A stretch of DNA of 64,000 nucleotides from Candidatus Yanofskybacteria bacterium. GTDB taxonomy: Bacteria; Patescibacteriota; Minisyncoccia; 2-02-FULL-40-12; GWA2-44-9. Position 1 is the first letter of the stretch. Each line of letters starts with the position of its first letter. Shown piece after piece: positions 11,753 to 64,000 of the stretch. A program made the position numbers and the translations under genes. The DNA lies in NCBI GenBank assembly GCA_016181045.1, contig JACPAB010000003.1, positions 7,652-71,651 of the forward strand, given 5' to 3'. The notes under the pieces are model-generated. The model made no database searches, was not told where the DNA came from, and saw only the letters and a list, made by a program, of their open reading frames with translations.

Positions 11753-11868
11753 TTTTCAATTTTCAGTTTCCAATTTTCATTGAATGTTTCAATGTATTAA
11801 TTTTCAATTGAAGAATTGAATCATTGTAAATTTATTGGGAATTGATAATTGTAAATTGGAAATTTTTT
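11753..11868. repeat. AT-rich dispersed intergenic repeat (core caattttcattgaat), copy 1
   Basis: Core at 11771-11785. Related copies at 13747-13844 and 46511-46568, each just after a + strand stop codon. Confidence 0.7.
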
Positions 11869-11872
11869 AGTT

Positions 11873-12205
11873 ATGGCTCTCAACAAAAAAAACCGGCTCA
11901 AAAAGAAGAAGGATTTCGAGGGGGTCTTTAAACAGGGAAAAGCCGTAAAAGGCAATTTTTTATTTGTCAAATACAGGAAAAACGGTTCGGGCTATCCCAG
12001 GATCGCTTTTATAGTATCGTCCAAAGTTTCTCGAAAGGCCGTTGTCAGGAACAGGATCAGGAGAATATTGTCGGATATTTCCAGAACCAGGTTGAAGGAA
12101 CTTGGCCCTGTGGACATAATATTGATAGCGGATAAAAAGATCATAGAAGCCCCAAGAGAAAAAATAGAACAGGACCTGGAATCGATTTTCAGAAAACTTA
12201 AATGA
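11873..12205 (+). CDS. rnpA: Ribonuclease P protein component
   Basis: 110 aa, basic, RNR-type motif ([10 protein letters not shown]), located between rpmH and yidD. Confidence 0.9.
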
Positions 12206-13202: not shown

Positions 13203-13717
13203 CCAATTTTACCGAACAGAACGGGGACAGGATCAAGGAAGCCGTCAAAAAGATGGCGGGCTTTATGGACACGGAGTGTCAGGTAGAGCTTCGGGAAGAG
13301 CTGGGCCAGGATGGCAGGGTTAGTTTGGTTATTTCCATGTACACTCCCGACAACGCCAGATTTTTGATAGGAAAGAACGGACAGAATCTGAAGGCCCTCG
13401 AACACTTGGTAAGGTCAATGTTCATGAAACCTGCCCGACTACCTGACGGCACTCAGGCGGGCGGGGACAGTAAAGAAGTTGCCGGCATCTCTGTTGATGT
13501 GAATGACTATAAACGCGCAAGGACCTCGTACATAGTGGATATGGCCAAACAGGCCGTCCAGCGTGTAAGGAATACCCAGAAGGCCGAGGTTCTCCTTCCT
13601 ATGTCTGCCTATGAAAGAAGGGTTGTCCACATGGAGCTGGCAGCTTGCCCTGACATTGCCACCGAAAGCGCTGGAGATGAACCCCATAGACGGATAGTAA
13701 TCAAGCCCTATCCATAA
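13199..13717 (+). CDS. jag: Jag-like KH/R3H RNA-binding protein
   Basis: KH-like GKNGQNLKALEHL and an R3H-type C-terminus (YERRVVHMEL...GDEPHRRIVI). Located downstream of yidC. Confidence 0.85.
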   Translation: MTNFTEQNGDRIKEAVKKMAGFMDTECQVELREELGQDGRVSLVISMYTPDNARFLIGKNGQNLKALEHLVRSMFMKPARLPDGTQAGGDSKEVAGISVDVNDYKRARTSYIVDMAKQAVQRVRNTQKAEVLLPMSAYERRVVHMELAACPDIATESAGDEPHRRIVIKPYP

Positions 13718-24829: not shown

Positions 24830-26855
24830 CGTCATCTGTGTAAAAGTTTGACATGGATGTTCTGACATCCAAAACATTGCCGGGCATCTCGCCTATGAAT
24901 CTGGAAGGCAGATTCGCTTCGGTAGAACCGAAAATGTGCCGGTATTTGGCATAAGATATGTGAAGTTTCTTTTTTGCCCTGGTTATGGCCACGTAGCAGA
25001 GGCGTCTTTCCTCCTCCAGCTCTTTTGGGTCAATAAGCGACCTTGAATGAGGGAAAAGCCCCTCTTCCATTCCGGCGATGAATACGATCGGGAACTCCAA
25101 ACCTTTTGACGAATGCGCCGTCATTAACACAACCCTGTTGTTGATATTTTTAAGATTGCCTGCCCCGTACCAACCCCGCCCCTTTTCTGAATGGCGGTCA
25201 GCGGAAGAGATTGGTGTGGGGTCGGCGTCTTGTAGCAGAGCTATCTCTTCCAAGAATATAGCAATCCCATCTCCGTTTTTGAGCGAGTCGTGTTTCTTGG
25301 CGACGGTCAGCAGTTCTTTTATGTTCTCTATCCTGTCTTGGACGGTATCGGCGACACCTGATTTTTTAAATGTGTTTAAAAGATAGTCCTCATAGTTGGT
25401 TTTTCGGACTATGTACTTAATAAGTTCGGTAAGCTTTACGGACTTTTTGGAATTTAGATCTTTGAGTAGTTTGGCCAGTTCTTCAAGGCCGGGACCCTGT
25501 CTCGAACCCTTCATTTCCGCAGCCAGTGCCGCTACGGCCGATATAAGATTTGTCTCCTCGGTCTTTACTATTTTTTGAAAAGTGCTCGAGCCGATGCCGC
25601 GTGGCGGCAGGTTGTATATCCTTTCGAAACTCACGACATCGGAAGGGTTCGAGACCACTTTAAGATAGGCCAGCATGTCTTTTATCTCTCTTCTTTCGTA
25701 AAATTTGATGCCCCCGACTATCTGATACGGGAACCCTCTTGTGATCAACGCCTCTTCGATGGCTCTGGATTGGGCATGGGTCCGGTAAAGAATGGCGAAG
25801 TCGTTTATTTTATACCCCTGCGTGGTCAGGTCTTCCATCGTTTCGATTATAAAACCGGCCTCGTCACGTTCGTTCAAGGCCTCCCTGATTAAAATTTTCT
25901 CCCCGTGGTCATTCTCGGTCCAGAGCTCTTTGGGCACCTGGCTTTGGTTATTGGATATGACGTTCTGGGCGGCGGCGAGGATATTCTTGGTGGACCGGTA
26001 ATTCTGTTCCAAAAATATTACTTTGGCATCGGGGTAGTCCTTTTGGAAGTTCAAGATGTTCTTTATGTCGGCGTCGCGGAACATGTAGATACTTTGCGCA
26101 TCATCACCAATGACGAATAGATTCTTATGTTTTTGAGCAAGAAGGGTCACCAGCTGATATTGGTCATGGCTGGTGTCCTGATATTCGTCGACAAGGATAT
26201 ATTTCCAGACGTTTTGATATTTCTCGAGGATGTCCGGGTTTTGTTTAAATATTTTAACGGTTAGAACTATCAAATCGTCAAAGTCCAATCCGTTCATTTT
26301 TTTCAGCTCGGTTTGGTATTTCCCGTAAACTCTCGCCACGACTTTGGAGAAAAAATCATCGGGCTCAAATTTCTCCGGAAAAATAAGATTTGTTTTTAGC
26401 CGCGATATTTTAGCAAGTATTGCCCGGGGGTTGAATTTCTTGGGGTCTATTTCAAGATCACCCATGACCCTCTTGACGACTCCGGTCTGGTCGTCAGAAT
26501 CAAAAATCGTGAAGTTGCTGCCGTAACCGAGAACAGGTATCTCTCTCCTTAATATCCGGAGGCAGATGGAATGGAAAGTGCCCAGCATCGGCGTAGCCGA
26601 TGCAATTTTCAAATTCCGATTTTCAATTTTCAATAAATTATAAACCCTTTCTTTGATCTCGTTGGCGGCCTTATTGGTAAAAGTAATTCCGAGAATTTCA
26701 CAGGGTCTTATTCCTTGAGAAATTAAATAAGCTACCCGATGGGTCAAACAGCGGGTCTTGCCCGAACCCGGTCCTGAAATAACCAAAACAGGCCCCTCAA
26801 TGGCCCTTACCGCTTCAATCTGTTTGTCGTTTAAACCCTGGAAAATATTGTCCAT
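24807..26855 (-). CDS. pcrA: ATP-dependent DNA helicase PcrA/UvrD
   Basis: SF1 motifs GPGSGKT, VDEYQDT and TAHSSKGLEF. Start trimmed to MDNIFQGLNDKQ. Confidence 0.92.
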   Translation of the reverse strand: MDNIFQGLNDKQIEAVRAIEGPVLVISGPGSGKTRCLTHRVAYLISQGIRPCEILGITFTNKAANEIKERVYNLLKIENRNLKIASATPMLGTFHSICLRILRREIPVLGYGSNFTIFDSDDQTGVVKRVMGDLEIDPKKFNPRAILAKISRLKTNLIFPEKFEPDDFFSKVVARVYGKYQTELKKMNGLDFDDLIVLTVKIFKQNPDILEKYQNVWKYILVDEYQDTSHDQYQLVTLLAQKHKNLFVIGDDAQSIYMFRDADIKNILNFQKDYPDAKVIFLEQNYRSTKNILAAAQNVISNNQSQVPKELWTENDHGEKILIREALNERDEAGFIIETMEDLTTQGYKINDFAILYRTHAQSRAIEEALITRGFPYQIVGGIKFYERREIKDMLAYLKVVSNPSDVVSFERIYNLPPRGIGSSTFQKIVKTEETNLISAVAALAAEMKGSRQGPGLEELAKLLKDLNSKKSVKLTELIKYIVRKTNYEDYLLNTFKKSGVADTVQDRIENIKELLTVAKKHDSLKNGDGIAIFLEEIALLQDADPTPISSADRHSEKGRGWYGAGNLKNINNRVVLMTAHSSKGLEFPIVFIAGMEEGLFPHSRSLIDPKELEEERRLCYVAITRAKKKLHISYAKYRHIFGSTEANLPSRFIGEMPGNVLDVRTSMSNFYTDDDEKIIKY
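25163..25222 (+). repeat. 60-nt hairpin repeat inside pcrA (copy a)
   Basis: ccccgtaccaa...ttggtgtgggg. Homologous to 55574-55636. Confidence 0.7.
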
Positions 26856-29807: not shown

Positions 29808-31235
29808 TTATTTTAACGCTTGTTCCAAATGATATGCCAGACGCAGGACCGTCGCTTCATCGAAGTATTTTCCGATGATCTGGAAGCCCACCGGCATATT
29901 ACTCTCCCGTCCCAATCCGCACGGGACAGATATGCCGGGCAGGCCGGCCAGGTTAACCGGTACGGTGTAGATGTCTTCCAAATACAGAGACAACGGGTCG
30001 GCTACCTTCTCCCCTATTTTGAATGCCGTAGTCGGAGACACCGGCCCTACAATAGCGTCAACTTTCTTAAAAGCATTGTCGAAGTCCTGTCTCAACAGAG
30101 TGCGGATTTTCTGCGCTTTCAGGTAATAAGCATCATAATATCCCGAGGATAACGCGTATGTTCCCAAGATTATCCTTCTTTTGGGTTCCGGTCCAAGCCC
30201 TTCCGAACGCGAGTTCAAATATACGTCCAACAATGTTTCCGATTTTTGGGAAGAATGACCGTATCTTATGCCGTCAAAACGGGCCAGGTTCGAAGAGATC
30301 TCCGAAGGAACGATTATATAATAAGCGGCCAGAGCGTATTCGAAGTTGGGCAGAGATATCTCTTCGATGATACAGCCCAGCTCCGCGAGCTTGTTTATGG
30401 AATGCCTGACCTTTTCTTCAACCTCCGGGCTCAAGCCTTTCCCAAAAAATTCCTTCGGCACTCCTATTTTAAGGCCCTTGATGCCGGAATTAAGATTTTT
30501 CGAGACATTAGGGACGGCTTTGTTTAAAGTTGTGGAATCGAATTTATCAAATCCGGCAATTGCTTCGAAAATCAGGGCCGCGTCTTCAACATTTTTGGTG
30601 ATAGGTCCGATCTGGTCCAGAGATGAGGCCATCGCTATAAGCCCGTGGCGGGAAACTCGTCCGTAACTGGGCTTAAACCCCACCACTCCGCAAAAAGACG
30701 CCGGTTGGCGTATCGAACCGCCGGTATCGGAACCGAGGGCGAATACCGCCAGGTCCGCGGCAACGGCTGCGGCCGAACCGCCGGAAGAACCGCCCGGAAC
30801 CCGCTTAAGGTCGTGAGGATTTTTCGTGGGGCCAAAAGCGGAATTTTCGGTTGATGTGCCCATGGCGAACTCATCCATATTTGTTTTCCCAAGAAACTGT
30901 ACGCCTGCTGATCTTAACTTTTTTATAACCGTTGCGTCATAAGCCGATATATAATTTTCAAGCATCTTTGAGCCGGCAGTACAAATAGTGCCGTTGATGA
31001 GCATGTTGTCTTTGGTGGCGGCGGGAACAGCCCAGAGCGGCCCAGCCGCCTGGGAATTTCTGATTTCTAATTTCAAATTTCTAAATACAGATAAATAAGC
31101 GTTGAATTTTTTGTTCTCTCTGCTTATTTTTTCTGAATAGTGTTTGAAAATCTCTTCAGCCGAAAACTCCTTCTTCCGAAGGCCTACTTGAACATCGCGA
31201 ATCGTGTAATTTTTTGAATTTTTAATTTCGGACAT
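29808..31235 (-). CDS. gatA: Glutamyl-tRNA(Gln)/aspartyl-tRNA(Asn) amidotransferase subunit A
   Basis: Amidase signature GGSSGGSAAAVA, 475 aa, located downstream of gatC. Confidence 0.93.
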   Translation of the reverse strand: MSEIKNSKNYTIRDVQVGLRKKEFSAEEIFKHYSEKISRENKKFNAYLSVFRNLKLEIRNSQAAGPLWAVPAATKDNMLINGTICTAGSKMLENYISAYDATVIKKLRSAGVQFLGKTNMDEFAMGTSTENSAFGPTKNPHDLKRVPGGSSGGSAAAVAADLAVFALGSDTGGSIRQPASFCGVVGFKPSYGRVSRHGLIAMASSLDQIGPITKNVEDAALIFEAIAGFDKFDSTTLNKAVPNVSKNLNSGIKGLKIGVPKEFFGKGLSPEVEEKVRHSINKLAELGCIIEEISLPNFEYALAAYYIIVPSEISSNLARFDGIRYGHSSQKSETLLDVYLNSRSEGLGPEPKRRIILGTYALSSGYYDAYYLKAQKIRTLLRQDFDNAFKKVDAIVGPVSPTTAFKIGEKVADPLSLYLEDIYTVPVNLAGLPGISVPCGLGRESNMPVGFQIIGKYFDEATVLRLAYHLEQALK

Positions 31236-31266
31236 TTGGATTTGTTTAGAAATTAGTAATTAGAAA

Positions 31267-31602
31267 TTAGGATTTCCGCAAGACCGATTTCACCTTAATA
31301 AATCGGTTTTGTCGGCTTGGCGCTTGGCCGACGAGCTTATCGTTCAAGTCCTCGTTCATTTCACCCTCTTTCGCCGAGGCTTCGGCGGGCAAGAAGTCCT
31401 TCCGGTATTCGTCCGTCCGGAAAGAATTGATCAGGCCTGTGATCTGGTGGGCGGGGTCAACTTTTGACGTATCAACTTTGTTCAACTGGTTTATAAAATC
31501 CAAAATCGAACCCAGCTCTTTTGGAAATTTTTTCGCTTCATCCTTGTTTAACTTTATTCTTGCCAAGTTGGCAACATGTTGTAGTTCTTTTTCGGTAAGC
31601 AT
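31267..31602 (-). CDS. gatC: Amidotransferase subunit C
   Basis: VANLARIKL...ILDFINQLNKVDT pattern, located upstream of gatA. Confidence 0.85.
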   Translation of the reverse strand: MLTEKELQHVANLARIKLNKDEAKKFPKELGSILDFINQLNKVDTSKVDPAHQITGLINSFRTDEYRKDFLPAEASAKEGEMNEDLNDKLVGQAPSRQNRFIKVKSVLRKS

Positions 31603-42809: not shown

Positions 42810-43029
42810 TGTTTACATTATATCTGAATACTAGACAAAACTTATACACATAGAGTAAGGGTAAACGCGCAAATTGACCTAATTGCTCTAATTATTCTAA
42901 TTGACCTAATCAAATCCTAAACTCTAATATCTAAATCCTAAACAAATTCAAAATTCTAAATTCAAAACTTTTCTGATTTTTGGGATTTGATTAGAATAAT
43001 TAGGTTAATTAGAAATTAGAATAATTTTA

Positions 43030-48125: not shown

Positions 48126-49037
48126 CTATTTTTTATCATGGAATCTTTCGTGGACTTCGCGAAGTTGTTTATCGGTCACGTGAGTATATATTTGGGTCGT
48201 GGTGACCGAAGAATGGCCTAAAAGTGCCTGGACGGAGCGGATATCGGCGCCGTTACGCAGAAGGTCGGTAGCAAAAGAGTGACGGAGAGTGTGGGGCGAA
48301 ACCTTCTTTCTAATGATGCCGGCCTTGATGGCGTATTTTCCGACTATTCTCTGAATGCTTCTCGGCGTCAGGCGCAGGTTCGACTCCTTTGAGAAACTTT
48401 TTGAGCGCGGAATCCTGATGAACAGAGCCTCGTCGGCATCCACTCGCTTTTTGAGATATTGGTCCAAAGAGTCCTTCGCGTTGTCTGATAAAAACACGAC
48501 CCTTATCTTACTGCCCTTTCCGCGAATCGAGACCTCTCCTCTTTTGGGGTCTATTTTGTCCCTGTCCAGCGCGCACAATTCGGATACGCGCATTCCGGTG
48601 CTGAATAAAGTACCGAGAACCGCCCGGTCTCTTAAGGTATCCAGATTGTTGTCTTCTGGAGATTTTAATAATCTTTCCAATTCATCCGCTTCCAAAAATG
48701 TGACTTCCCGGTCCTCCTGTTTCCCCAATTCCACCTTCTCCGCCGAAACGGATTTAATGTCTCTTTTGGCTAAGTATTTCAAGAAATTGCGCAGGGCGAT
48801 TATGTGGTAGTTCTGGGTAACTTTTTTAAGCGGCTTACCCTCGTCGTCCTTGAAGCGGTTCAGATAAAGACGGTATTGTCTGATCAGGTCTTCGGTTATG
48901 CCTGCCGGGCTGGAAACCTTGGTGAATTGTAAAAATCTATTCAAATACCGCCCGTAGTTTTCCACGGTTTTAGCCGAGCGGTTCTTCTCTATCTCCAAAT
49001 GCTCCAAGTATTGAATTTTGAGGGTTTTGATGTCCAT
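48126..49037 (-). CDS. Tyrosine recombinase, XerC/XerD family
   Basis: Catalytic region HTLRHSFATDLL...LLGHSSVTTTQIYTHV and an N-terminal SAM-like domain. Confidence 0.88.
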   Translation of the reverse strand: MDIKTLKIQYLEHLEIEKNRSAKTVENYGRYLNRFLQFTKVSSPAGITEDLIRQYRLYLNRFKDDEGKPLKKVTQNYHIIALRNFLKYLAKRDIKSVSAEKVELGKQEDREVTFLEADELERLLKSPEDNNLDTLRDRAVLGTLFSTGMRVSELCALDRDKIDPKRGEVSIRGKGSKIRVVFLSDNAKDSLDQYLKKRVDADEALFIRIPRSKSFSKESNLRLTPRSIQRIVGKYAIKAGIIRKKVSPHTLRHSFATDLLRNGADIRSVQALLGHSSVTTTQIYTHVTDKQLREVHERFHDKK

Positions 49038-50628: not shown

Positions 50629-52737
50629 ATGGAAGTAAAAACGTATAAGACGGAGTTTGCGGAGAAGCCGCTTTCGGTCGAATTCGGGCGTCTCGGCGGG
50701 CAAGCTAACGGTTCTTGCCGCGTTCAGTACGGCGAAACAACCGTGCTTATCAACGCCACCATGTCGGCTCACCAAAAGCAGGTGGACTACATGCCCCTTT
50801 CGGTTGATTACGAAGAAAAGTATTATGCCGCCGGCAAGATTAAGGGCTCAAGGTGGATAAAAAGAGAAACCCGCCCTTCGGATGAAGCCATTTTGTCCGG
50901 CCGAGTTATTGACCGCGCCATTCGCCCGCGATTTGACCACAACATCAGGAACGAGATCCAGGTCGTCGCAACGGTCCTTTCTTTTGATGGAGTGAACGAT
51001 CCGGACATGCCCGCTCTCTTTGGGGCATCATTAGCTCTTATGACCTCCGATATTCCCTTTGACGGCCCGATTGCTGGGGTAAGGGTCGGCAGAGTGGGCG
51101 GCAAACTGATATTCAACCCTACCTACAAAGAAAGAGCCGAAAGCGATTTCGACGTCGTTGTTGCCGGAACAGCCAATAAAATAAATATGATTGAGGCCGG
51201 AGCGAAAATAGTTCCCGAAAAAAACATAGCCGAAGCCATAACAGCCGGGTTTCAAGAGTTTCAGGGTTTAATAAAGTTTCAAAGTAAGATTGCGGCAGAA
51301 ATGGGAAAAAATAAGAAAGAATTGGTCGTGTTCAGCCGAGATGAAGCTCTTGTGCTGACTGTCAGGAATTTCGCCGACCCGAAGCTCGAGAAAACCCTCT
51401 TTGCTCCCGGAAAAACAAAGGGTGAATTTTATGAGGGACTTGGCCAGATAAAAGAAGAAACCATGGCTTACGTTAAAGAGCAGTATAAGGACCATCCCGA
51501 ATTGGGCAAAAAAATGGCCGAGACCGATGCTATTTTTGAAGAAGAGATAGACCGTATCGTCCACAGGAATATTCTTACGGAAGAAAAGAGGCCCGATGGT
51601 AGAAAGGTTGACCAATTGAGGGACTTAAATGCCGATGTCGGCATTATCCCCCATACTCACGGGTCGGGATTATTTAACAGAGGAACAACCCAAGCCCTTT
51701 CCATGCTTACTCTTGCTGCTCCCGGTATGGAGCAATGGATAGAAACGATGGAAATAAACCTCACAAAAAAGAGATTCATGCACCATTATATTTTCCCGCC
51801 TTTCAGTGTGGGTGAAGTGGGCAGGATGGGCGGAGGCGGACGGCGTGAAATTGGCCACGGGGCTTTGGCCGAAAGGTCTCTGGAACCGATAATTCCGGCA
51901 AAAGATAAATTCCCTTACACGATCAGGGTTGTCTCCGAAATACTTTCATCCAACGGCTCTTCTTCTATGGCCTCGGTGTGCGGTTCTTCGCTGGCCTTGA
52001 TGGACGGCGGCGTGCCCATCAAATCCCCTGCCGCCGGTATCGCGATGGGACTGATGTTTGATGAAAAAGGAGAGAAGTATAAGATCCTTACCGATATTCA
52101 AGGTCCGGAGGACCATCATGGCGACATGGATTTGAAAGTTGCCGGAACCAGAGACGGCGTGACCGGAATGCAGATGGATGTAAAGGTAGAAGGCATCACA
52201 ACCGAAATAGTCGAAAAAGCCCTTGAGCAGGCCAAAAAGGCGCGTTTGGAAATACTCGAGGTCATGGAAAAATCTATCTCCACTCCACGCCCAGAGTTGT
52301 CTCAATATGCTCCCCGTGTGGAAACGATTAAAATAAATCCCGCCAAAATAGGCGCTTTGATAGGCCCTGGAGGCAAGGTTATCAATGACATAATCGAGAG
52401 GACCGGAGCCGAGATAGACATTGAAGACGACGGTTCGGTTTTTGTCACGTCGCTTACTCCGGAGGGAATGAAAAAGGCAATGGAGTTAATTAAAGACATC
52501 ACCTATGAGCCCCAGTCGGGAGACGAGTTTGACGGCACGGTTGTAAGCATCAGGGACTTCGGCGCCTTTGTTGAAATAATGCCCGGCAGGGACGGGATGG
52601 TTCATATCTCCGAAATAAGCAATGAACGAGTGGGCAAAGTTTCCGATGTTTTGAAAATGGGCCAGAAAGTCCACGTTTGGGTCAAAGGCGTGGATGATAT
52701 GGGCAAAGTTTCTCTTACGATGAAGGGGCCGAGATAA
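50629..52737 (+). CDS. pnp: Polyribonucleotide nucleotidyltransferase (PNPase)
   Basis: Two RNase PH domains, a KH domain (IGPGGKVINDI) and an S1 domain (FGAFVEIMPGRDGMVHISE). Confidence 0.96.
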   Translation: MEVKTYKTEFAEKPLSVEFGRLGGQANGSCRVQYGETTVLINATMSAHQKQVDYMPLSVDYEEKYYAAGKIKGSRWIKRETRPSDEAILSGRVIDRAIRPRFDHNIRNEIQVVATVLSFDGVNDPDMPALFGASLALMTSDIPFDGPIAGVRVGRVGGKLIFNPTYKERAESDFDVVVAGTANKINMIEAGAKIVPEKNIAEAITAGFQEFQGLIKFQSKIAAEMGKNKKELVVFSRDEALVLTVRNFADPKLEKTLFAPGKTKGEFYEGLGQIKEETMAYVKEQYKDHPELGKKMAETDAIFEEEIDRIVHRNILTEEKRPDGRKVDQLRDLNADVGIIPHTHGSGLFNRGTTQALSMLTLAAPGMEQWIETMEINLTKKRFMHHYIFPPFSVGEVGRMGGGGRREIGHGALAERSLEPIIPAKDKFPYTIRVVSEILSSNGSSSMASVCGSSLALMDGGVPIKSPAAGIAMGLMFDEKGEKYKILTDIQGPEDHHGDMDLKVAGTRDGVTGMQMDVKVEGITTEIVEKALEQAKKARLEILEVMEKSISTPRPELSQYAPRVETIKINPAKIGALIGPGGKVINDIIERTGAEIDIEDDGSVFVTSLTPEGMKKAMELIKDITYEPQSGDEFDGTVVSIRDFGAFVEIMPGRDGMVHISEISNERVGKVSDVLKMGQKVHVWVKGVDDMGKVSLTMKGPR

Positions 52738-52744
52738 GCTCTCC

Positions 52745-52919
52745 AGCCCCAATACCCAAGACCGACCGATAGTTCGGCTTTCCGGCGAAACCGACTATCT
52801 ACATGCTACAGAGTTTCCCGGCTAAAGCACGGGAACCTACTCCGAGACGGCGTTTTGGTCGCCTTTGGCGACACCAAGCCAAAATGCCTGCGCAAGTTCG
52901 TTCTGTGGGTATTGGGGCT
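52745..52919 (-). ncRNA. Structured ~175-nt element, family copy D (reverse orientation relative to 53422-53612)
   Basis: 14-bp closing stem agccccaataccca / tgggtattggggct. Internal hairpin gtcgcc-ttt-ggcgac (52858-52872). Starts 8 nt after the pnp stop. RNA status is unproven. Confidence 0.45.
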
Positions 52920-52941
52920 TTCGCTTGAAGTTAAGTATTAT

Positions 52942-52966
52942 AAAACCGGCCCCAAAGGCCGGTTTT
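52942..52966 (+). terminator. Intrinsic terminator
   Basis: aaaaccggcc-ccaaa-ggccggtttt. Confidence 0.8.
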
Positions 52967-52974
52967 ATAATTGA

Positions 52975-53038
52975 CCCCGTAGTGAATTTTCCGAAATTTT
53001 TTGGCGACTTTGTCGCAATCGGAAAATCTACTACAGGG
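52975..53038 (+). repeat. Hairpin element GTAGTGAATTT...AAATCTACTAC, copy 2, abutting a promoter
   Basis: Arms ccccgtagtgaattttccga (52975-52994) and tcggaaaatctactacaggg (53019-53038). Confidence 0.7.
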
Positions 53039-53068
53039 TTGACAAATGGGTTTTAAGTGTGGTATACT
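53039..53068 (+). promoter_or_regulatory. Near-consensus extended -10 promoter (TTGACA-18-TGgTATACT)
   Basis: -35 at 53039-53044, TG at 53060-53061, -10 at 53063-53068. Confidence 0.6.
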
Positions 53069-53136
53069 TTAAATACAGTTCGTTCTGTCAAAACTCAGTA
53101 TGCGCTGAGCTGGAAGGCAAAGCGTAGGAGGAGAAA

Positions 53137-53325
53137 ATGCAGCAAGTTATCAGAGATGGCCCGGTCAGTGTCGACTACGACCCAGAGAAGAAAGAGTTAG
53201 TGATCCGAAACAAGGTTACGGATCATGCGTGTCCTGGTCGCATCCGTTTCTTCGATGACGGGAAGATACTCGTGTCGCCATTCGGACCGTTCGAACTTGT
53301 TGGCAACAGTATCAAGTTTGGTTAG
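53137..53325 (+). CDS. Hypothetical 62-aa protein
   Basis: An AGGAGG SD lies 6-7 nt upstream of the ATG, with the consensus promoter upstream and a hairpin plus T-tract (53347-53400) downstream. No recognisable motif. Confidence 0.55.
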   Translation: MQQVIRDGPVSVDYDPEKKELVIRNKVTDHACPGRIRFFDDGKILVSPFGPFELVGNSIKFG

Positions 53326-53421
53326 TAGCCTCGACACAGGAGGTATCAGCGGTCATCATTTGAAGACCACTGGACCTTCTGTGCGGGCTTTTTTTGTTTG
53401 GGAAAATAATCAAGCGGAGCC

Positions 53422-53612
53422 AAACATTCTCTCTGACATACCCGCAGGCAAGTCATGAAATGAAAGGCGGACAATAAAGAGTCCGAAATAATAGGTCGAG
53501 CGGTCGCCAAAGGCGACAGGCAAGTGCGGGTTACCTGTTATTTCGGGAACTCTTTCCAGACGCTCTTGAATTGAATGGCGAAGGCGAGGACCGGATGGAA
53601 GAGAGGATGTTT
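53422..53612 (+). ncRNA. Structured ~190-nt element, family copy C1
   Basis: Closing stem aaacattctctct / agagaggatgttt. Internal hairpin gtcgcc-aaa-ggcgac (53503-53517). Conserved blocks are shared with 57647-57867. RNA status is unproven. Confidence 0.5.
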
Positions 53613-53745
53613 GGCGGAGCGTCCTTTGTTTACAACTTTATTTTGTTGTTGTGCTAAAATGAATTTAATCAAATAGCCAATAGCGAATAGCCAATAGCGA
53701 ATAGTAAAAAACTAGTCGCTAATCGCCAGTCGCTAATTGCTAATC

Positions 53746-55266
53746 ATGGCTGACGATCAAGGAGGACCGAAAATCGCAAGCATAGACGAATTGGTCAATG
53801 AACTGACCAAGAAGAATTCTTCACCACCCAAGCCACCAATGGGCGGTCAGTTTCAACCTAATCCTGCCCCGGCGCCTGCTCCTTCACCAGCGCCCCAGAC
53901 GGCAGTTCCGCAGCCGGAAATACCCAAACCAAAGTTCACTCCTCCGCCTCTTCCGTCGGCAATGCCAAGACCGGCTACTCCTTCGACGGGCTCCCAGCCT
54001 TCGCAAAGCTATGGCGGGCAGGCAGGACCTTCGGCTGCTCCGGCCCCAATGCCAGCTCCTACACCAAAGCCATCCGCACCGCCTCCGTCAGCCGCGGCAC
54101 CTGTAAAAGAATACCAGTCGTCCATCAGGACAATGAAAGAGGATATTTCAACATTAAAAATGGGTCAAAAACCTGCCGGGGTTGATGTTCCCAGGAAAGT
54201 TGAAGCACCTGTACCGAGCGGCCCTCCCGGACCCAAGATAGTTCCGCCGCCCAACACTCCAGGACAGTTCAAAATGCCTTCTGCGGGGCTGGGTCAAGCT
54301 GAAAAAGCTGCTCCCCTTCCTCAAACTAAAGAACCCATCTCTCCACCCATGCCTACCGGCAGACAGGCAGTTCGAGGACCCAGCTTACCGCCAGCCGGTA
54401 GGCCCGCTCCTCTGCCAGTTGGCGGACCGCAAAAGTCCCAAATATATGCGCCTCCTTTACCAACAGGAGGAATATCCGGCAGTCGGAATCGCTTATTCGG
54501 GATTATCATCGGAGCCGCGGTTTTGTTCGGCGCGCTTTACTGGTTCCTGGTCTTAAGGGTTCCCGAGCCGGAAGTAGTCCTGGAAACACCCACGCCAACC
54601 CCCGTGGCAACACCAATACCCGACTTAAGCTCTGTTTTGGCTGGATTAGAAAGCCAGACAGTTTGTACCGCTGGTTGTACTGTGGATGATTTTATTTCAA
54701 ATATTAGCAGTGGGACGATAAATGGCGGACAATTTAAAAAGGTTTATTTGAGTGAAAATGACACATCCGGTAATGTGGCTGAGGTTTTAGATTCTTTGGG
54801 CCTAGTATATCCTGCCCGGCTTAAAGAATCATTGGGCCCCGATTCTTTTGTTTTGACGTATGGCCAAAAAGAAATATTTGATTCAAAAGGATTTCTTGTA
54901 ATAAGCGCTCCTGTAGAAAAAAGGTTTGTGTTCATATCTGAAGTCAAGGATTCATCCCTAGTTAATCAAGAAGCAAAAGCATGGGAACCGACCCTGACCG
55001 AGGCCTTCCGGCAATTATTCGGCTTAAATCCGGCGCAACAACCAGAACCTAATTTTCTAAACAACACCTACCAGGGCTCCGCCATAAGGTTCAGGAATTT
55101 CCCCTACGCTGACAGAAGCATAGATATCGGTGTTGTTTCGGCAATAAACGGGAAAAGTTACCTTGTTATTGCCGGCTCGAGGGAATCAATGTTCGCTACT
55201 ATAGATGTTTTGAAGGGTCTTACAGTATTAAGTTCACCAACCCCGCCTCCGTCACCTATTCCGTAA
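53746..55266 (+). CDS. Hypothetical proline-rich single-TM protein with an extracytoplasmic C-terminal domain
   Basis: ~250-aa Pro/Ala-rich N-terminal region, TM helix LFGIIIGAAVLFGALYWFLVL, and a ~230-aa C-terminal domain. ATG at 53746. Confidence 0.6.
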   Translation: MADDQGGPKIASIDELVNELTKKNSSPPKPPMGGQFQPNPAPAPAPSPAPQTAVPQPEIPKPKFTPPPLPSAMPRPATPSTGSQPSQSYGGQAGPSAAPAPMPAPTPKPSAPPPSAAAPVKEYQSSIRTMKEDISTLKMGQKPAGVDVPRKVEAPVPSGPPGPKIVPPPNTPGQFKMPSAGLGQAEKAAPLPQTKEPISPPMPTGRQAVRGPSLPPAGRPAPLPVGGPQKSQIYAPPLPTGGISGSRNRLFGIIIGAAVLFGALYWFLVLRVPEPEVVLETPTPTPVATPIPDLSSVLAGLESQTVCTAGCTVDDFISNISSGTINGGQFKKVYLSENDTSGNVAEVLDSLGLVYPARLKESLGPDSFVLTYGQKEIFDSKGFLVISAPVEKRFVFISEVKDSSLVNQEAKAWEPTLTEAFRQLFGLNPAQQPEPNFLNNTYQGSAIRFRNFPYADRSIDIGVVSAINGKSYLVIAGSRESMFATIDVLKGLTVLSSPTPPPSPIP

Positions 55267-55267
55267 C

Positions 55268-55380
55268 AGTGTCACCCAGTGTCACCAATAAATGACAATG
55301 TTAGAGCCATATTTTGATGGTGACACTGATTGGTGACATGGTGACAAAAGTTATCCACATGGTGACATTGACGTGTCACC
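55268..55380. promoter_or_regulatory. Array of seven GGTGACA/TGTCACC heptamers plus a perfect DnaA box
   Basis: TGTCACC at 55270-55276, 55280-55286 and 55374-55380. GGTGACA at 55319-55325, 55332-55338, 55340-55346 and 55361-55367. TTATCCACA at 55351-55359. Confidence 0.6.
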
Positions 55381-55573
55381 TTAAAGAGTTAAAATGAAAG
55401 TAGGTCTTTCGCTGGTTGTCTGACACGTTCGTGGATTGCCGGCAATTCATTAGGGCTTTCGCGGCCCACTAAGGCGCAGTGCTCACACTCGCAATTCATT
55501 TGTTTTTGCTCAGGAGCGCTCTGCGCCTTTTAAGTTTTTATCCAAGAGTGAAACGATTGGCTTACAAAAACTT

Positions 55574-55636
55574 AACCCCGCACCAAACCCGCCCCCTTTC
55601 TGAATGGCGGTCAGCGGAAAAGATTGGTGCGGGGTT
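55574..55636 (+). repeat. 60-nt hairpin repeat (copy b), intergenic
   Basis: aaccccgcaccaa...ttggtgcggggtt perfect closing stem. Homologous to 25163-25222. Confidence 0.7.
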
Positions 55637-55671
55637 GTTTTATTAAAATATTATCGTTATCATATATATTT

Positions 55672-56043
55672 ATGACTAAAGATGAACTCCAAAAATTATA
55701 CGAAGACCTCGAGCTGGAAGAAAAGAATTTAAGGAAGCAGTTGGCCGAAATAGCCGAGCAGAATCCCGCCATACGGGGCGATTATCAGGTTAAGGTTCCC
55801 GAATATGGAGAACATGAAGACGAGAACGCCATGGAGGCGACCGACCTGGACAGGAATTTTGCCATGGAAAGGGAGCTGGAAAACAAGCTCAACGAAATAT
55901 TGAAGACCAAAGAAAAGATCAAAAAAGGAACTTATGGAAAATGCGAGAGTTGCTCTGCCGAAATAGCGCCGGCCCGGCTTAAGGTAAGGCCGGTAGCGGC
56001 ACTTTGCATAAGTTGCGCCAAGTCAGGTAGTAAATCCAACTAA
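55672..56043 (+). CDS. DksA/TraR-family C4 zinc-finger protein
   Basis: Coiled-coil N-terminus and CESC...CISC zinc finger. ATG at 55672. Confidence 0.8.
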   Translation: MTKDELQKLYEDLELEEKNLRKQLAEIAEQNPAIRGDYQVKVPEYGEHEDENAMEATDLDRNFAMERELENKLNEILKTKEKIKKGTYGKCESCSAEIAPARLKVRPVAALCISCAKSGSKSN

Positions 56044-56104
56044 ATTCACCCCCACACTCATGTATGAGTGTGGGGGTTCGACCCGGAGGGAGTCGAACCC
56101 CCTT

Positions 56105-57643
56105 TTGTCCACTAGATTATTTTCATCGGCAATATCCGGGATAGATGCCAAACTCATAGAAGTTGAAGCCGATTCTTTTCCCGGCCTTCATTCTTTTACC
56201 GTCGTCGGCTTGCCGGACAAATCGGTTCAGGAGGCCAAGGACCGGATATCTTCCGCTATTAAGAATAGCGGATTTCAGGCACCCAACAGAAAACACAAGA
56301 AAATAGTGGTTAATCTGGCCCCGGCAGACATAAAAAAGGAAGGTCCTTCTTATGACCTTCCCATTGCTTTGAGTTTTCTGGTCGAGACGAACCAACTCAA
56401 GTTCGACTCCTCAAAGACCCTTTTCATGGGCGAGCTCTCCCTGGATGGATCATTGAAACCCACAAACGGGGTTTTGGCGTCGGCGATATTGGCTAAAAAT
56501 CAGGATTTTAAGGAGATCATTGTCCCCTATCAGAACGTTGATGAAGCCGCCGTTATCGGCGGATTGAATGCGGTCGGGGCAAGAACGATAACCGAAGTCG
56601 TCAACCACCTCAACGAGATAAAAAGAATAAAGTCGTCCCCACCCTCGAGAGTTCCGGAAAAATCCAGTGATTTGGCTCTTTTCTCTTCGATCCAGGGCCA
56701 GGAATCAGCCAAAAGGGGCATTACTATTGCCGCCGCCGGCTTCCACAATGTTCTTATGTGGGGCCCTCCCGGTTCCGGTAAGACCCTTCTTTCCAAAGCT
56801 CTGGTCGAATTAATGCCGAAAATGTCGGTTGCCGAGTCGCTGGACGTGGCCAAGATATACAGCTCCGTCGGGTTGTTGAAAGGCAGTCCCCTGTCTCTGG
56901 AAAGGCCATTTCGCAGTCCACACCACACAACCTCCGCTCCGGCAGTTATCGGAGGAGGCGCTTGGCCCAAGCCCGGAGAGATAAGTTTGGCCCATAGAGG
57001 GGTGCTTTTTCTTGATGAATTGCCTGAATTTCCCAGGAATGTTCTGGAAGCCCTCCGTCAGCCCCTCGAAGATGGTAAAGTAACCGTATCGAGAGCTGCC
57101 GGCTCGGTTGAACTGCCGGCCAAGTTTATGCTAACGGCGGCCATGAACCCATGTCCCTGCGGGAATCACGGCGAGGAAAAGCTTGCCTGTATCTGCTCCC
57201 TTATCTCAATATTGAGGTATAGAAAGAAGATTTCCGGCCCGCTCTTGGACAGGATAGACATTCAACTTAATGTTCCGCGCGAAACAATCGTCCGGGGGAC
57301 GATTGTTTCCGTCACCGCAGGGGCGGCTGGGGGCGATCCTCGCCCCAAGATAAAGCTTGCCCAAGAGATCCAGCAGGCCAGATTCAAAGGTTCCGGTATT
57401 TTGTTCAACTCCGAAATAAACTACAAAAATATAGATAAATACTGTGTTTTGAGCCGAGAGGCGGACGAATTTTTGAATAGATCGGCGAACATAAACTCCC
57501 TGTCCCTAAGGTCCTATCACAAGATAAAGAAACTTGCCCGCACCATAGCCGATATGGACGATTCTGAAATTATCCACGAGAAACACATAGCCGAAGCGGT
57601 CGGATTGAGGATTAACGACAAAATGGCCTCTGACTTGGCGTAG
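56105..57643 (+). CDS. comM: ComM/YifB-family Mg-chelatase-like AAA+ ATPase
   Basis: GPPGSGKT, LFLDELPEF and a Lon-protease-like N-domain. TTG at 56105 gives the family-typical N-terminus (..SSAISGIDAKLIEVE). Confidence 0.85.
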   Translation: MSTRLFSSAISGIDAKLIEVEADSFPGLHSFTVVGLPDKSVQEAKDRISSAIKNSGFQAPNRKHKKIVVNLAPADIKKEGPSYDLPIALSFLVETNQLKFDSSKTLFMGELSLDGSLKPTNGVLASAILAKNQDFKEIIVPYQNVDEAAVIGGLNAVGARTITEVVNHLNEIKRIKSSPPSRVPEKSSDLALFSSIQGQESAKRGITIAAAGFHNVLMWGPPGSGKTLLSKALVELMPKMSVAESLDVAKIYSSVGLLKGSPLSLERPFRSPHHTTSAPAVIGGGAWPKPGEISLAHRGVLFLDELPEFPRNVLEALRQPLEDGKVTVSRAAGSVELPAKFMLTAAMNPCPCGNHGEEKLACICSLISILRYRKKISGPLLDRIDIQLNVPRETIVRGTIVSVTAGAAGGDPRPKIKLAQEIQQARFKGSGILFNSEINYKNIDKYCVLSREADEFLNRSANINSLSLRSYHKIKKLARTIADMDDSEIIHEKHIAEAVGLRINDKMASDLA

Positions 57644-57646
57644 ATA

Positions 57647-57867
57647 AAAGCGAAGCCCTAACACTTTTTACATCCAGTCCTCGCCTTCGTCACTCACCTT
57701 AAAACGTCTGTAAAGAGCATCTAAAATAACAGGTAACCCTCGCTTGCCTCCAAGCTAAAGCTTGGCGCTCGACCTATTATTTTAGGCCTCTTTATTGTCC
57801 GTCTTTCAGCTCATGACTCGCCTGCGGGTATGTAAAAAGCGTCATGGCCTTCGCTTTAAGTTAACAA
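57647..57867 (-). ncRNA. Structured ~220-nt element, family copy C2 (reverse orientation)
   Basis: Closing stems aaagcgaagcc / ggccttcgcttt and ctttttacat / atgtaaaaag. Internal hairpin ccaagc-taaa-gcttgg (57740-57755). Starts 4 nt after the comM stop. Confidence 0.5.
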
Positions 57868-58040
57868 AAAGCTCCCGGCCATATCCCTATCATTCAGCAC
57901 TCCTGGAGCGATACGGTAACATAAAGAGCATCCGAGATAGCAAAGAACAAATATAGCGAAGCGCTCTTGTTCTTTGCGTTAATGAGGATGCCCGCACAGG
58001 ATGTTCCGTGCGGAACACTTCGGTTGGCTCAGTGTCGGCA

Positions 58041-59639: not shown

Positions 59640-59906
59640 GTCGTTCCGCTCCCGCCAATCCCCACCCTCATCGCTCCGCCCCTCTTCGCTCGGCCGACAA
59701 TCCATCTCAGACACGCCTCCGGTCGCCCAGCGTGCGACCTCGGCCACATTCGCCACGGCTTTTCGAATCCGGTTCAGATCAATTATAACCGGATTCGCCA
59801 TGCGAAAAGCCGGGTCTCAAGTGTCTTCAATTGGATTGTCGGCCTGCGCTTAGTAAGGCGAGGTGGCAAACGGTCTAAAACAGGAAGGAGCTTTCGCTAA
59901 ACACTT

Positions 59907-60103
59907 AAAGCGAAAGCCCCTCTCCATTTGTAGACCGTCTGCGTCGAGGGTAACACAATGCTTGAATTAACTGATAATTTGCTTAGATAACAAATTTTAG
60001 CCGGAAAACCCGCCTAAGTTTTACAAAGTAAAATTTAGGCGGGGCAAACGGATGCTAAAATTTGTTAAGCAAATTGAAGTTTAATTCGAGCATTTGTCCG
60101 AAG
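59907..60103 (+). repeat. Left ~197-nt direct repeat bounding the island, containing a hairpin with ~45-nt arms
   Basis: Arms at 59957-60003 and 60050-60094. About 80% identical by eye to 62221-62399. Confidence 0.75.
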
Positions 60104-60140
60104 ATGACGAAGTCATAAGCAGTCACTGTCTCGTACGGGA

Positions 60141-62055: not shown

Positions 62056-62220
62056 TCTTTGCGGCCACCTCGCTTTTTCGCGACGCCTTATCCCACGAGG
62101 AACCACGTCAAACCCTGTTGGGTTTGCGTTCTCTTTCGGTCCGGGGTGGCCTGTGAACGTTCCTCTTAGTGATAAGGCCGTCGCCTCAAAGCTAAACGGC
62201 TCACTTCTATGAGCCGTTTT

Positions 62221-62399
62221 AAAGCAAAGCCCATTCCCGTTTTAGACCGTTTGCCTCCGAGGGTAACATAATGATTAAATTAATAGATAATTTGCTTATT
62301 CAATAAATTTTAGCCGGAAAATCCTGAGTCTGCGAAGGAGGAACGGATGCTAAAATTTATTAAGCAACATTGAGAGTTAATTTAAGCATTTGTCCGAAG
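62221..62399 (+). repeat. Right ~179-nt direct repeat bounding the island, containing the hairpin
   Basis: Arms at 62270-62316 and 62345-62390. Lies directly upstream of tsaE. Confidence 0.75.
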
Positions 62400-62429
62400 G
62401 AGACCGAAGGCGCAGGCAACAGGTCGAAA

Positions 62430-62909
62430 ATGGTGATTTATCACTCCAACAGCCCAAAAGATACTCAAAGATTAGCAGCAAAAATTGCCAGGGAAACAGA
62501 ATCCGGTGTCATTCTTTTAGAAGGGGAGTTGGGCGCCGGCAAGACCACTTTTGTCCAGGCGTTCGCCAGAGCTTTAGGGGTCAAAGCCAAAGTAAAAAGC
62601 CCCACATTCAATATTATTAAAAAGTATAAAATCCCTTTTCGTTCTAATGGCTATTCGCTAATGGCTATTCGCTATTTGTATCACATTGATTGCTATCGCC
62701 TGAAAGACCACAAGGAAGCGATACCGCTGGGCATCCAGGATGTTTTTTCCGCCGCAGGCGGACCCGCCTCTGGCGGGAAAGCATCGCAGAGTGTTGTTCT
62801 TATTGAATGGCCGGAAAGAATAAGCAAAGTTTTACCCAAAAAACGTATTAGAGTGCATATTGATCATATAGATAAGAATAAACGTAAAATAACAATTTCT
62901 AATTTCTAA
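62430..62909 (+). CDS. tsaE: tRNA t6A37 biosynthesis ATPase TsaE (YjeE)
   Basis: GELGAGKTTFVQ P-loop, SPTF, HIDCYRL and LIEWPE motifs. ATG at 62430 is preferred because the upstream part of the tracked ORF lies in the repeat. Confidence 0.85.
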   Translation: MVIYHSNSPKDTQRLAAKIARETESGVILLEGELGAGKTTFVQAFARALGVKAKVKSPTFNIIKKYKIPFRSNGYSLMAIRYLYHIDCYRLKDHKEAIPLGIQDVFSAAGGPASGGKASQSVVLIEWPERISKVLPKKRIRVHIDHIDKNKRKITISNF

Positions 62910-62915
62910 TTACTA

Positions 62916-64000
62916 ATGACTAAAAAACTGATTCTTATTGATGGCCATGCGCTGGTTCACAGGGCGTTCCATGCCCTGCCGCTATCAATGAGCTCGCCCA
63001 ACGGCATTCCCACCAACGCGGTCTATGGCTTCGTTTCCGTCTTGATAAAAACCATCAAAGATTTGAGGCCGGATTATATTGTGGCCACTTTCGACCTAGC
63101 CGGTCCGACGTTCCGCCACGAGGAGTTCGCCGAATACAAAGCCCACCGGGAAAAGGCCCCGGACGACCTTCATGTCCAGGTGCCGCTGGTCAAAGAAATA
63201 CTGGGCGCATTCGGCATACCCATCTACGAGAAAGAGGGCTTTGAGGCCGATGACCTGATTGGTTCTATTGCCGAGATCACCAAGAAGCACAAAGATATCC
63301 AGACCATCATTGCCACCGGGGACCTGGACACCCTCCAGCTTGTTGAGAGCGACAAAGTCGTTGTGCGCACTCTCAAAAAGGGTGTTTCCGACACCATTTT
63401 ATATACACAAAAAGAAGTCGAGGAAAGATACGGCCTAGAACCCGGGCAGATGGTTGATTTCAAGGGTTTAAAAGGCGATCCGTCCGACAATATTCCCGGC
63501 GTTCCCGGAGTGGGGGAGAAGACGGCATCAGTCCTGATAAAGACCTTTAAATCTTTGGAGGGTCTTTATCAAGAAATTTCTAATTACCAATTTCTAATTT
63601 CTACAGAGATTCCCGGGCTAAAGCACCGTGAACCTTCTCCGAGCAAACAAATTCAAAATTCAAAATCTAAAAAAAATAAAACCCAAATCAAGCCGCCGCT
63701 TTCAGAAAAGTTAATTCAGAAATTGTTGGAAAATAAAGATGTGGCGTTTTTCTCAAAGAAATTAGCTACGATTATTAGAGATGTCCCGATTCAGTTCGAT
63801 ATTAAAAATGCCGAGTGGAGAAAGGGTATGAAAAAAGAGGAGCTTGTAAAAATGCTGCAGGACCTCGGCATATACAGTTTGCTTAAGAGAATAAACGAAC
63901 TGGATGGCGAAACTCCTGAACAGCCATCTTTGATGGCGGAAGCGACAGACGATATAAAAGTATCTTCCCTCGGTTCCCGTGAACAGGTCGGCAAGCTGAT
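62916..64000 (+). CDS. polA: DNA polymerase I, 5'-3' exonuclease region (partial, runs off the window)
   Basis: ORF absent from the track (no stop in window). MTKKLILIDGHALVHRAFHA..., FEADDLIG and GDPSDNIPGVPGVGEKTA (H3TH). Confidence 0.88.
   Translation, partial: MTKKLILIDGHALVHRAFHALPLSMSSPNGIPTNAVYGFVSVLIKTIKDLRPDYIVATFDLAGPTFRHEEFAEYKAHREKAPDDLHVQVPLVKEILGAFGIPIYEKEGFEADDLIGSIAEITKKHKDIQTIIATGDLDTLQLVESDKVVVRTLKKGVSDTILYTQKEVEERYGLEPGQMVDFKGLKGDPSDNIPGVPGVGEKTASVLIKTFKSLEGLYQEISNYQFLISTEIPGLKHREPSPSKQIQNSKSKKNKTQIKPPLSEKLIQKLLENKDVAFFSKKLATIIRDVPIQFDIKNAEWRKGMKKEELVKMLQDLGIYSLLKRINELDGETPEQPSLMAEATDDIKVSSLGSREQVGKL

Follow-up and report, generated by a model that had tools for sequence, protein, structure and literature searches.

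The 64,000-nucleotide stretch of contig JACPAB010000003.1 from Candidatus Yanofskybacteria analysed here (hereafter the window) carries two copies, A and B, of a hairpin-rod family about 210 nt long that is widespread among groundwater bacteria of the Candidate Phyla Radiation (CPR) and has not been described before. The fold of this family (family 1) is clearly under selection, on a strand that, judging from sequence, is mostly not the transcribed one, and is more conserved than the neighbouring essential genes. Families 1, 2 and 3 make up a superfamily of modular build, consisting of intergenic hairpin repeats of groundwater Paceibacteria, and cover ~1.7% of the window. The rods are most likely non-autonomous hairpin repeats of the kind represented by repetitive extragenic palindromes (REP/REPIN), enterobacterial repetitive intergenic consensus (ERIC) sequences or integron attC sites, an identity that we favour only tentatively. 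The genomes of CPR bacteria (Patescibacteria) count among the most streamlined known and are generally portrayed as repeat-poor; a mobile or recombination system hidden so far, or else a novel class of structured RNA, would in either case be new biology for the phylum.

Copy A occupies positions 53412-53621 of the forward strand, from AAGCGGAGCC to GGCGGAGCG, and copy B positions 57646-57857 of the reverse strand, from AAAGCGAAGGCC to GGGCUUCGCUUUU, both being longer than an earlier sequence-only reading of this DNA had them. Each is a full rod, that is, one long imperfect hairpin capped by a small GC-rich hairpin, and both begin with (A)AAGCGRAG. The minimum free energy of copy A is -86.6 kcal/mol on its own strand (z -7.1) and -70.0 kcal/mol on the opposite one, that of copy B -90.3 kcal/mol (z -8.0) and -63.5 kcal/mol, and no shuffled sequence folds as stably as A(+) or B(-). 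The proposed homology of the two copies is borne out by ~78% identity over ~170 nt and by the shared rod fold, and the conserved blocks listed in the sequence-only reading each occur exactly twice in the 64-kb window, where it had placed them, against a chance expectation of 0 to 0.45. It was also right that the closing stems differ in sequence while keeping their pairing, and that the internal hairpin is replaced as a whole, GTCGCC/GGCGAC in A giving way to CCAAGC/GCTTGG in B.

The description of these blocks as unpaired holds only in part, as most of them pair with one another (AAUAAUAGGU with ACCUGUUAUUU, AAAGAG with CUCUUU, GUCAU with AUGRC) and only CCGCAGGCAAG / GAAGRCGAGGAC and CGAGCG / AGGCAAGCGAGGG are internal loops. 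In copy A the 5' strand of the basal internal loop, CCGCAGGCAAG at 53442-53452 (+), is invariant or nearly so in 41-51 copies, CCGCAG within it being part of the pattern used to search for relatives. The 3' strand of this loop, GAAGGCGAGGACCGGAUG at 53580-53597 (+), lies outside the search pattern, and GACGAGGAC of that strand is kept in nearly all copies. Further up the rod follow the 5' arm of helix P5 (AAUAAUAGGU) with the junction CGAGCG (53487-53502, +), the variable apical hairpin GUCGCC-AAA-GGCGAC (53503-53517, +), and the apical junction AGGCAAGUGCGGGUU with the 3' arm of P5 (ACCUGUUAUUU; 53518-53543, +); here GGGTTACCTGT is nearly invariant though it too is outside the search pattern. 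Helix P5 pairs in 98.7% of cells and retains a U-G wobble in 49 of 51 copies, and the apical hairpin is swapped for CCAAGC/GCUUGG in B (57750-57765) and for CCCCGCC.../...GGCGGGG in many loci. The corresponding parts of copy B, all on the reverse strand, are ACAUACCCGCAGGCGAGUCAUGA (57811-57833), comprising the end of the closing helix and then the 5' strand of the basal loop, the 3' strand of that loop, GAAGGCGAGGACUGGAUG (57671-57688), and the apical domain (57724-57781) with the P5 arms, CGAGCG, the CCAAGC-UUUA-GCUUGG hairpin and AGGCAAGCGAGGGUU. The closing helix of A contains a 3x3 purine internal loop and is not directly followed by a U-tract, whereas that of B is all Watson-Crick, with an A-tract before and a U-tract after it, and is terminator-like in both directions.

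Read from its true start, the TTG at 56105, ComM is 100% identical to a protein of a metagenome-assembled Candidatus Yanofskybacteria genome. Relatives' syntenic contigs were obtained via ComM homologues, and a metagenome scan with the pattern CCGCAG..ATAGGTCGAGCG..AGGCAAG found 59 loci beyond the window, all of them on groundwater metagenome CPR contigs (related loci and contigs are given L-numbers below). A scan of genome contigs with ACCCGCAGGC N{115,145} GAAGGCGAGGAC returned 65 chance matches in high-GC genomes and none in CPR; that pattern was GC-rich, while most copies carry GAAGACGAGGAC. No matching element was found in viral contigs, phage records or plasmids, and a full-text search of the literature gave no description of such elements. 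From an alignment of 41 sequences and a hand-checked structure a covariance model, R1, of 186 positions and 46 pairs was built. In the window R1 finds A (161.6 bits, E 8e-39) and B (171.2 bits, E 3e-41) and nothing else, and in the related loci it recovers 51 full copies, including second copies beyond the reach of the pattern (L100, L088, L086).

The model-based alignment of these 51 copies contains double-sided changes in 35 of the 46 base pairs, a value that none of 500 shuffles reaches. Pairing is realised in 89.5% of cells, compared with 71.6% in shuffles and 40-51% when partners are slid; the first three clear copies alone already show compensatory change in 25 of 66 pairs. Between subfamilies the arm sequences are wholly different with complementarity intact, and stem variants of tight subfamilies preserve pairing in 61 cases and lose it in 18 (17% expected). 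Against this background of exchanged arms stand four nearly invariant blocks, CCGCAGGCAAG, (A)AUAGGUCGAGCG, GGAGGCAAGCGAGGGUUACCUGU and GACGAGGACUGG. The motif pair AGGCAAG / CGAGSR occurs twice, in the basal and in the apical loop, in a pseudo-two-fold arrangement, and extra hairpins appear exclusively after AGGCAAG (L074, L084, L091, L105, L129). The suggestion of a structured family whose stems swap sequence yet still pair is thereby strengthened by ~50 homologues, the check by a covariance model having yielded both further copies and compensatory pairs.

Since the fold is under selection, the rods are neither a product of chance nor a decaying miniature inverted-repeat transposable element (MITE). 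A classical MITE, derived from an insertion sequence with a DDE transposase and decaying neutrally, would account for elements that are palindromic overall, multi-copy and intergenic and whose presence differs among relatives. It is nevertheless largely refuted and very improbable: pairing is under strong purifying selection with strong covariation, no consistent direct repeat (target-site duplication) flanks the ~50 copies inspected, no insertion sequence with matching ends (AAGCGAAGGCC... termini) is present in ~0.5 Mb of related contigs, and the divergence of paralogues within a genome implies that there was no recent burst.

Known RNA families fare no better, in agreement with the earlier failure to recognise an RNase P, SRP, tmRNA or riboswitch signature: Rfam has no match to A, B or C (the third element, described below) at the gathering threshold or at E 10, and Rfam 15 none for the family-1 and family-2 copies in L077, L109 and L128. 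A 6S-like or other housekeeping RNA missed by the Rfam models in CPR, one of the identities first considered, would share with the rods a length of ~200 nt, the rod shape and paired 5' and 3' ends. It is scarcely credible, since the 6S model has no match, two copies lie within 4.5 kb with several sister-family members besides in 64 kb, and nested or interrupted copies exist; the internal loops of the A and B rods measure 11/15 nt and 6/15 nt, and no large central bubble resembling an open promoter is present.

Among the paired cells of the 51 copies, G-U combinations number 161 and A-C combinations 39, an excess which means that one strand is the selected one. On this strand, called the sense strand here, 50 of the 51 copies fold better (mean -70 versus -57 kcal/mol). 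The bias is seen in recent changes as well, as single changes within tight subfamilies created a G-U pair 23 times on the sense strand and four times on its complement, in addition to 17 compensatory changes. By our reasoning, mutational biases linked to transcription or replication would predict the opposite, and the sense-strand bias is therefore read as selection on the sense-strand fold.

The position of the rods follows a rule that is common to families 1, 2 and 3, namely that the 3' end lies against the stop codon of a convergent gene. Gene context was taken from a dicodon gene caller trained on the element-bearing contigs. On the 3' side, a convergent gene with its stop facing the element was found 27 times at a median distance of 2 nt, 22 of these within 13 nt. 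The 5' side is roomier, with median distances of 196 nt to co-oriented genes whose stop faces the element (n=15) and 116 nt to divergent genes whose start faces it (n=29); of the 44 upstream neighbours, 29 are thus divergent. Genes abutted by the rods have housekeeping functions (pnp, comM, greA, gyrA, ftsW/rodA, ftsZ, nrd). In the window, adjacency to the pnp and comM stop codons had been noticed before, with gaps given as 8 and 4 nt; once the terminal module is included, the third element (copy C) touches the pnp stop codon (52735-52737) with its 3' end, and the 3' end of B lies 2 nt from that of comM (57641-57643).

Termini of family 1 read (T)AAAAGCGAAG...CTTCGCTTTT(A) or ...GGAGCG. B and about 13 of 38 classable copies have palindromic ends of the type TAAAAGCGAAGCC...GGCUUCGCUUUUA, with an A-tract, a GC-rich stem and a U-tract on both strands. 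A and some 12 others do not; in the latter the rod closes with ...GGC(U)GGAGCG, and a 3x3 purine loop arises between this end and the 5' GCGRAG. A further 13 copies remain unclassed. Such ends bring to mind a purely cis-acting element of the mRNA 3' end, an oversized intrinsic terminator or exonuclease barrier with neither mobility nor a function in trans, for which REP and ERIC elements provide a precedent. This explanation draws on the location 0-5 nt after the stops of pnp, comM, greA, gyrA, ftsW, ftsZ and nrd, on the palindromic TAAAAGCG...CGCTTTTA ends, and on the A-rich sequence before the 5' end of the element, which becomes a U-tract on the transcript of the abutted gene. A simple terminator scan calls none at the rods because the 'loop' would be 190 nt. 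We nevertheless regard the cis-acting explanation as unlikely: pairing is best on the strand complementary to the mRNA of the abutted gene, nine of the 40 copies for which both neighbours are known are flanked by divergent genes with nothing to terminate, a normal small terminator follows the rod in the pnp loci read (window C and L086), the ~12 of 38 copies without Watson-Crick closure have 3' flanks that are less T-rich, and 200 nt of conserved loops are left unexplained. The related idea of a REP-like stabiliser of the 3' untranslated region (3'UTR) keeps its positional half, as the elements do sit at gene 3' ends. In most loci the selected fold is antisense to the abutted gene, so the structure under selection is not that of the gene's own 3'UTR.

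A stable, host-serving structured RNA is a serious though less probable candidate. It would be an RNA of ~210 nt with paired ends, whose purine-rich loops (AGGCAAG opposite CGAGSR, with GGAGG and GAGGA in them) would offer a binding site for a protein or a component of the ribosome. Given the full complementarity of every copy to the 3' end of the convergent transcript, it may in addition regulate housekeeping genes as a cis-antisense RNA. The strong covariation, the nearly invariant loops, the retained U-G wobble, the strand bias in both old and recent substitutions, the restriction of extra hairpins to defined positions and orthologues that exceed the flanking coding sequence in conservation all suit an RNA of this kind, and the roomier 5' side is what a needed promoter would predict. 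No positional motif is found upstream of the sense strand in the base frequencies of 35 independent copies, the best upstream sigma-70 match (6.5) is no better than that in shuffles (7.3), and a consensus promoter scan finds none at A, B or C. A small canonical terminator hairpin lies within ~20 nt upstream of the 5' end of the element where flanks were read (window C, L079, L086, L108, L111), and most copies oppose the local direction of transcription. As far as can be judged from sequence, the selected strand would appear to lack visible means of being transcribed on its own. The same explanation is strained by the insertions that break a conserved loop in L120 and L110, and by fragments, nesting and the replacement of one family by another at the same site. 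Differences in presence among relatives, together with family replacement and nesting, are the reason why a repeat element is favoured over a stand-alone small RNA.

All families begin with AAGCGAA(A/G)GCC. The third element of the window, copy C (52738-52926, -), had been taken for a diverged copy of the same family and belongs to a sister family, family 3. It starts at AAGCGAAAGC, carries the terminal module AAGCGAAAGCCCC...GGGGCUGGAGAGC and the motif AUACCCACAG, and its interior folds as a three-branched structure. It is poorly aligned to A and B by MAFFT and does not match R1 even with filters off; neither it nor a diverged element in L070 is matched by nhmmer or the covariance model. What it has in common with family 1 is limited to the terminal module (AAGCGAAAGCC...GGCUGGAGAGC), the motif AUACCCRCAG and the small hairpin with GTCGCC, and it is tied to the superfamily solely through termini and motifs. 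Pieces of C reappear in L114, L127, L134, L111 and L098, and one of its branches is a ~45-nt module that is also inserted in L120 and in polA.

Family 2 is represented in the window by two rods of ~220 nt, at 62218-62437 and 59904-60139 (+), and by a fragment at ~59850-59900 (-). It starts with AAGC(G)AAAGCCC and has the conserved arms GACCGUUUGCCUCCGAGGGUAACA and GUCCGAAGGAGACCGAAGGCGCAGGCAACAGGUCGAAAAUGG; it is likewise a covarying rod, with compensatory change in 19 of 55 pairs among 12 sequences. At least 15 related loci contain it, and in many cases it stands back-to-back with family 1, the two 5' ends facing each other. Read from the sequence, a conserved AAAAUGG of the family-2 3' arm apparently supplies the start codon of tsaE, for which the gene caller places the open reading frame (ORF) start upstream, at 62370. 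If AAAAUGG does give this start, the family-2 sense strand must be transcribed there, a point in favour of a host RNA.

Turnover is seen where the same spacer can be compared among relatives. The comM-yraN spacer holds B (-) in the window and its (-) counterpart in L115, a clear family-1 homologue with an extra hairpin on the + strand in L074, and a diverged copy (-) plus a family-2 rod in L070; in L072 it is 30 nt long with no element, and in L071 an unrelated 67-aa ORF is present and no element. In the L071 spacer (11540-11915) this AT-rich ORF lies between near-copies of one hairpin (GTTCCGCGCGGAAC, GTTTCGCGCGGAAC), as if a terminator had been duplicated by insertion. In L070 a 45-aa ORF called in the source database (9482-9619) lies on the family-2 rod and is probably spurious. 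At the 3' end of pnp the window has family 3, whereas L086, L108 and L111 carry family 1 there, L071 and L074 carry family 2, and L072 is without an element; every element at this site is antisense to pnp. Copy A is 89% identical to its syntenic orthologue in L124. B is only 72% identical to its positional orthologue in L115, compared with 88% for the flanking coding sequence, because the arms have been swapped. The copies of L079 and L111 are 95-98% identical and have unrelated flanks.

Nesting adds a further layer to this turnover. A 48-nt hairpin is inserted within the conserved GACG^AGGAC loop in L120 and L110, and family 1 is enclosed by family-2-like arms in L127, L130 and L098. Between yraN and B in the window, a conserved block GCUCUUUAUGUUACCGUAUCGCUCCAGGAGUG...GGGAUAUGGCCGGGAGCUUU (57870-57960, -) shows 87-92% identity to the flanks of L132 and L130 and 78% identity to L120. 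Its resemblance is to the 5' arm of an outer, family-2-like rod, of which the window lacks the 3' arm. The window PolA (62916 onward) has an in-frame insertion at ~63575-63680, of net ~26 residues, without counterpart in the L074 orthologue. It carries the ~45-nt hairpin module CUCGGAGNAGGUUC..GUGCUUUAGCC..GGGAAUCUCUGUAG (-) between AT-rich repeat arms; this module recurs as a branch of copy C and as the insertion in the L120 and L110 family-1 copies. In-frame insertion into coding genes was not seen for family 1 itself.

These properties place the rods near several known systems without equating them with any. Like REP, BIME and REPIN elements, which accompany REP-associated tyrosine transposases (RAYTs) in Enterobacteria and Pseudomonas, they are extragenic, multi-copy hairpin units with no target-site duplication, long persistence and no promoter of their own; they lie near stops and terminators, form mosaics of back-to-back units, and keep their hairpins by compensatory change. 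Unlike these elements (20-40 nt for REP, ~100 nt for REPIN), the rods are five to ten times longer at ~210 nt, have elaborate conserved loops and the head AAGCGAA instead of a GTAG-type one, are far less numerous within a genome, and obey an orientation rule with respect to the gene that they abut. ERIC (IRU), Correia (NEMIS), RUP, BOX and Rickettsia palindromic elements are, similarly to the rods, imperfect palindromes of gene boundaries (100-170 nt) that form RNA hairpins and are possible terminators or processing sites, and the small module within the in-frame polA insertion recalls the Rickettsia elements. Correia and RUP elements have terminal inverted repeats and TA duplications, whereas the rods have no duplication; the others of this group show little covariation, whereas the rods comprise deeply diverged subfamilies with fully swapped arms and a mostly antisense selected strand. 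With integron attC sites the rods share a structure conserved beyond sequence, the importance of the fold of one strand, antisense to the adjacent ORF, a start at or within a few nucleotides of the ORF stop, a variable centre and the lack of target-site duplication. They differ in having no RYYYAAC / GTTRRRY core sites, no integron integrase or cassette array, core housekeeping genes as neighbours, greater length and a much more conserved sequence. Finally, raiA, HEARO/omega RNA, 6S and Y-RNA-like molecules resemble the rods in their ~200 nt, strong covariation, conserved loops and paired ends; unlike them, the rods match no model, are multi-copy and nested, and have no promoter or linked partner gene. 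Size, loops, copy number and the antisense-at-stop rule thus set the rods apart from REP/REPIN, from ERIC, Correia and Rickettsia elements and from attC.

What the sequences show is the family, its fold, the strand bias, the position rule, the turnover and the nesting; any mobility mechanism, its enzyme and a terminator activity are inferred. If the rods are indeed non-autonomous repeats, the identity that covers the largest number of observations, they would be discrete cassettes that are placed, replaced and nested at transcription-unit boundaries by machinery encoded elsewhere. Such machinery would recognise the folded sense strand, with the conserved purine-rich internal loops and the AAGCGAA terminus serving as recognition or joining sites, while the covarying arms would need only to pair. 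Cassettes would settle with the 3' end against the stop codon of an opposite-strand gene, and the closing helix of an installed copy probably serves in addition as a two-way terminator, a role proposed because many copies read TAAAAGCGAAGCC...GGCUUCGCUUUUA. In its boldest and rather doubtful form, the proposal would make the rods strand-specific folded sites of an unrecognised CPR system, in which a trans-acting recombinase or nuclease installs cassettes at core-gene stop codons, always antisense, in an attC- or REPIN-like manner; or else they would constitute a cis-antisense regulon over the 3' ends of pnp, ftsZ, gyrA, greA and comM.

Several observations weigh against the repeat-element identity. 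No transposase, RAYT or integron integrase was found in the window or among the 367 proteins of the element-bearing contigs, and no RAYT (Y1/HUH) adjoins any of ~60 element loci, whole genomes not having been searched. The window has a single Xer-like tyrosine recombinase (48126-49037), and the neighbours of the elements are housekeeping genes. As noted for the MITE, no target-site duplication was seen in the flanks of ~50 copies, nor was an autonomous parent element. Copy number is low and within-genome paralogues are diverged (78% between A and B), while identity reaches 94-95% between some orthologous copies whose flanking coding sequence is at 77-82%; for such conservation of orthologues, seen also between A and L124, an RNA useful to the host is at least as good an explanation. 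The elaboration of the conserved loops and the fixed sites of extra hairpins look like those of a functional RNA, and the 'recombinant' flanks of L129, L092 and L079 could be chimeras of metagenome assembly. The GC skew suggests that the + strand is the leading strand from ~44 kb onwards; A is on + and B and C are on -. This disregard of replication direction led us to reject replication-strand specificity and argues against a lagging-strand-template mechanism of the IS200/IS605 type.

Other candidate identities were also rejected. Target-site duplications of the TA, TTA or AAGCG type were considered, and the GCGRAGC that flanks some copies proved to be the quasi-palindromic closing module. 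A composite transposon made of an inverted A...B pair is at odds with L072, which has the same gene order without either copy. For a hairpin ribozyme, K-turn, bridge RNA, omega RNA or group I intron there was no fit of motifs, no partner gene and no Rfam match, as judged from sequence only.

Whatever their nature, the families are usable directly as Rfam or repeat-library entries. The rods explain spurious small ORF calls, and breaks in assemblies and chimeric joins in metagenome bins of CPR bacteria may be due to them. Four short Logan contigs with the window's yraN (L001-L004, from four sequencing runs) all end 77-84 nt past yraN, ~100 nt short of B, which is consistent with assembly breaks near repeats.

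Other repeats and minor features of the window deserve mention. An AT-rich repeat family (AATTTCTAATT.. / AAATTCAAAATTC..) with hairpin-like inverted pairs occurs at 114-260, 31053-31277, 42872-43013, 62887-62927 and 63561-63672, one pair forming the arms of the polA insertion. A 60-nt hairpin, CCCCGCACCAAACCCGCCCCCUUUCUGAAUGGCGGUCAGCGGAAAAGAUUGGUGCGGGGU, is found at 55576-55635 and 25163-25222 with 92% identity; the former lies directly upstream of a dksA/traR-like gene. Kin of the hairpin are present in L070 (also upstream of a dksA-like gene), L111, L084, L108 and L123, and it could represent a leader or a further repeat family. Inverted repeats of 48 nt at 13421-13468 and 14124-14171, GC-rich (...CCTGCCCGACTACCTGACGGCACTCAGGCGGGCGGGGAC) and 655 nt apart, are 92% complementary. 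The genes dnaN and dnaA are located at 8690-11441, beside rnpA, yidD and yidC; since cumulative GC skew has its minimum at ~44 kb and gene orientation switches from - to + there, the replication origin may not adjoin dnaA. A free-standing ORF with LAGLIDADG homing-endonuclease domains (2304-3185, +) has yebC on one side and, on the other, a nucleotidyltransferase-like ORF (1478-2218) that lies downstream of ruvB. The start of comM is given as ATG 56060 in the ORF list and as TTG 56105 in the database protein, and the 45 nt before this TTG consist of a terminator hairpin followed by a T-arm-like hairpin (GGTTCGACCCGGAGGGAGTCGAACC), with a faint partial tmRNA match at 56048-56105.

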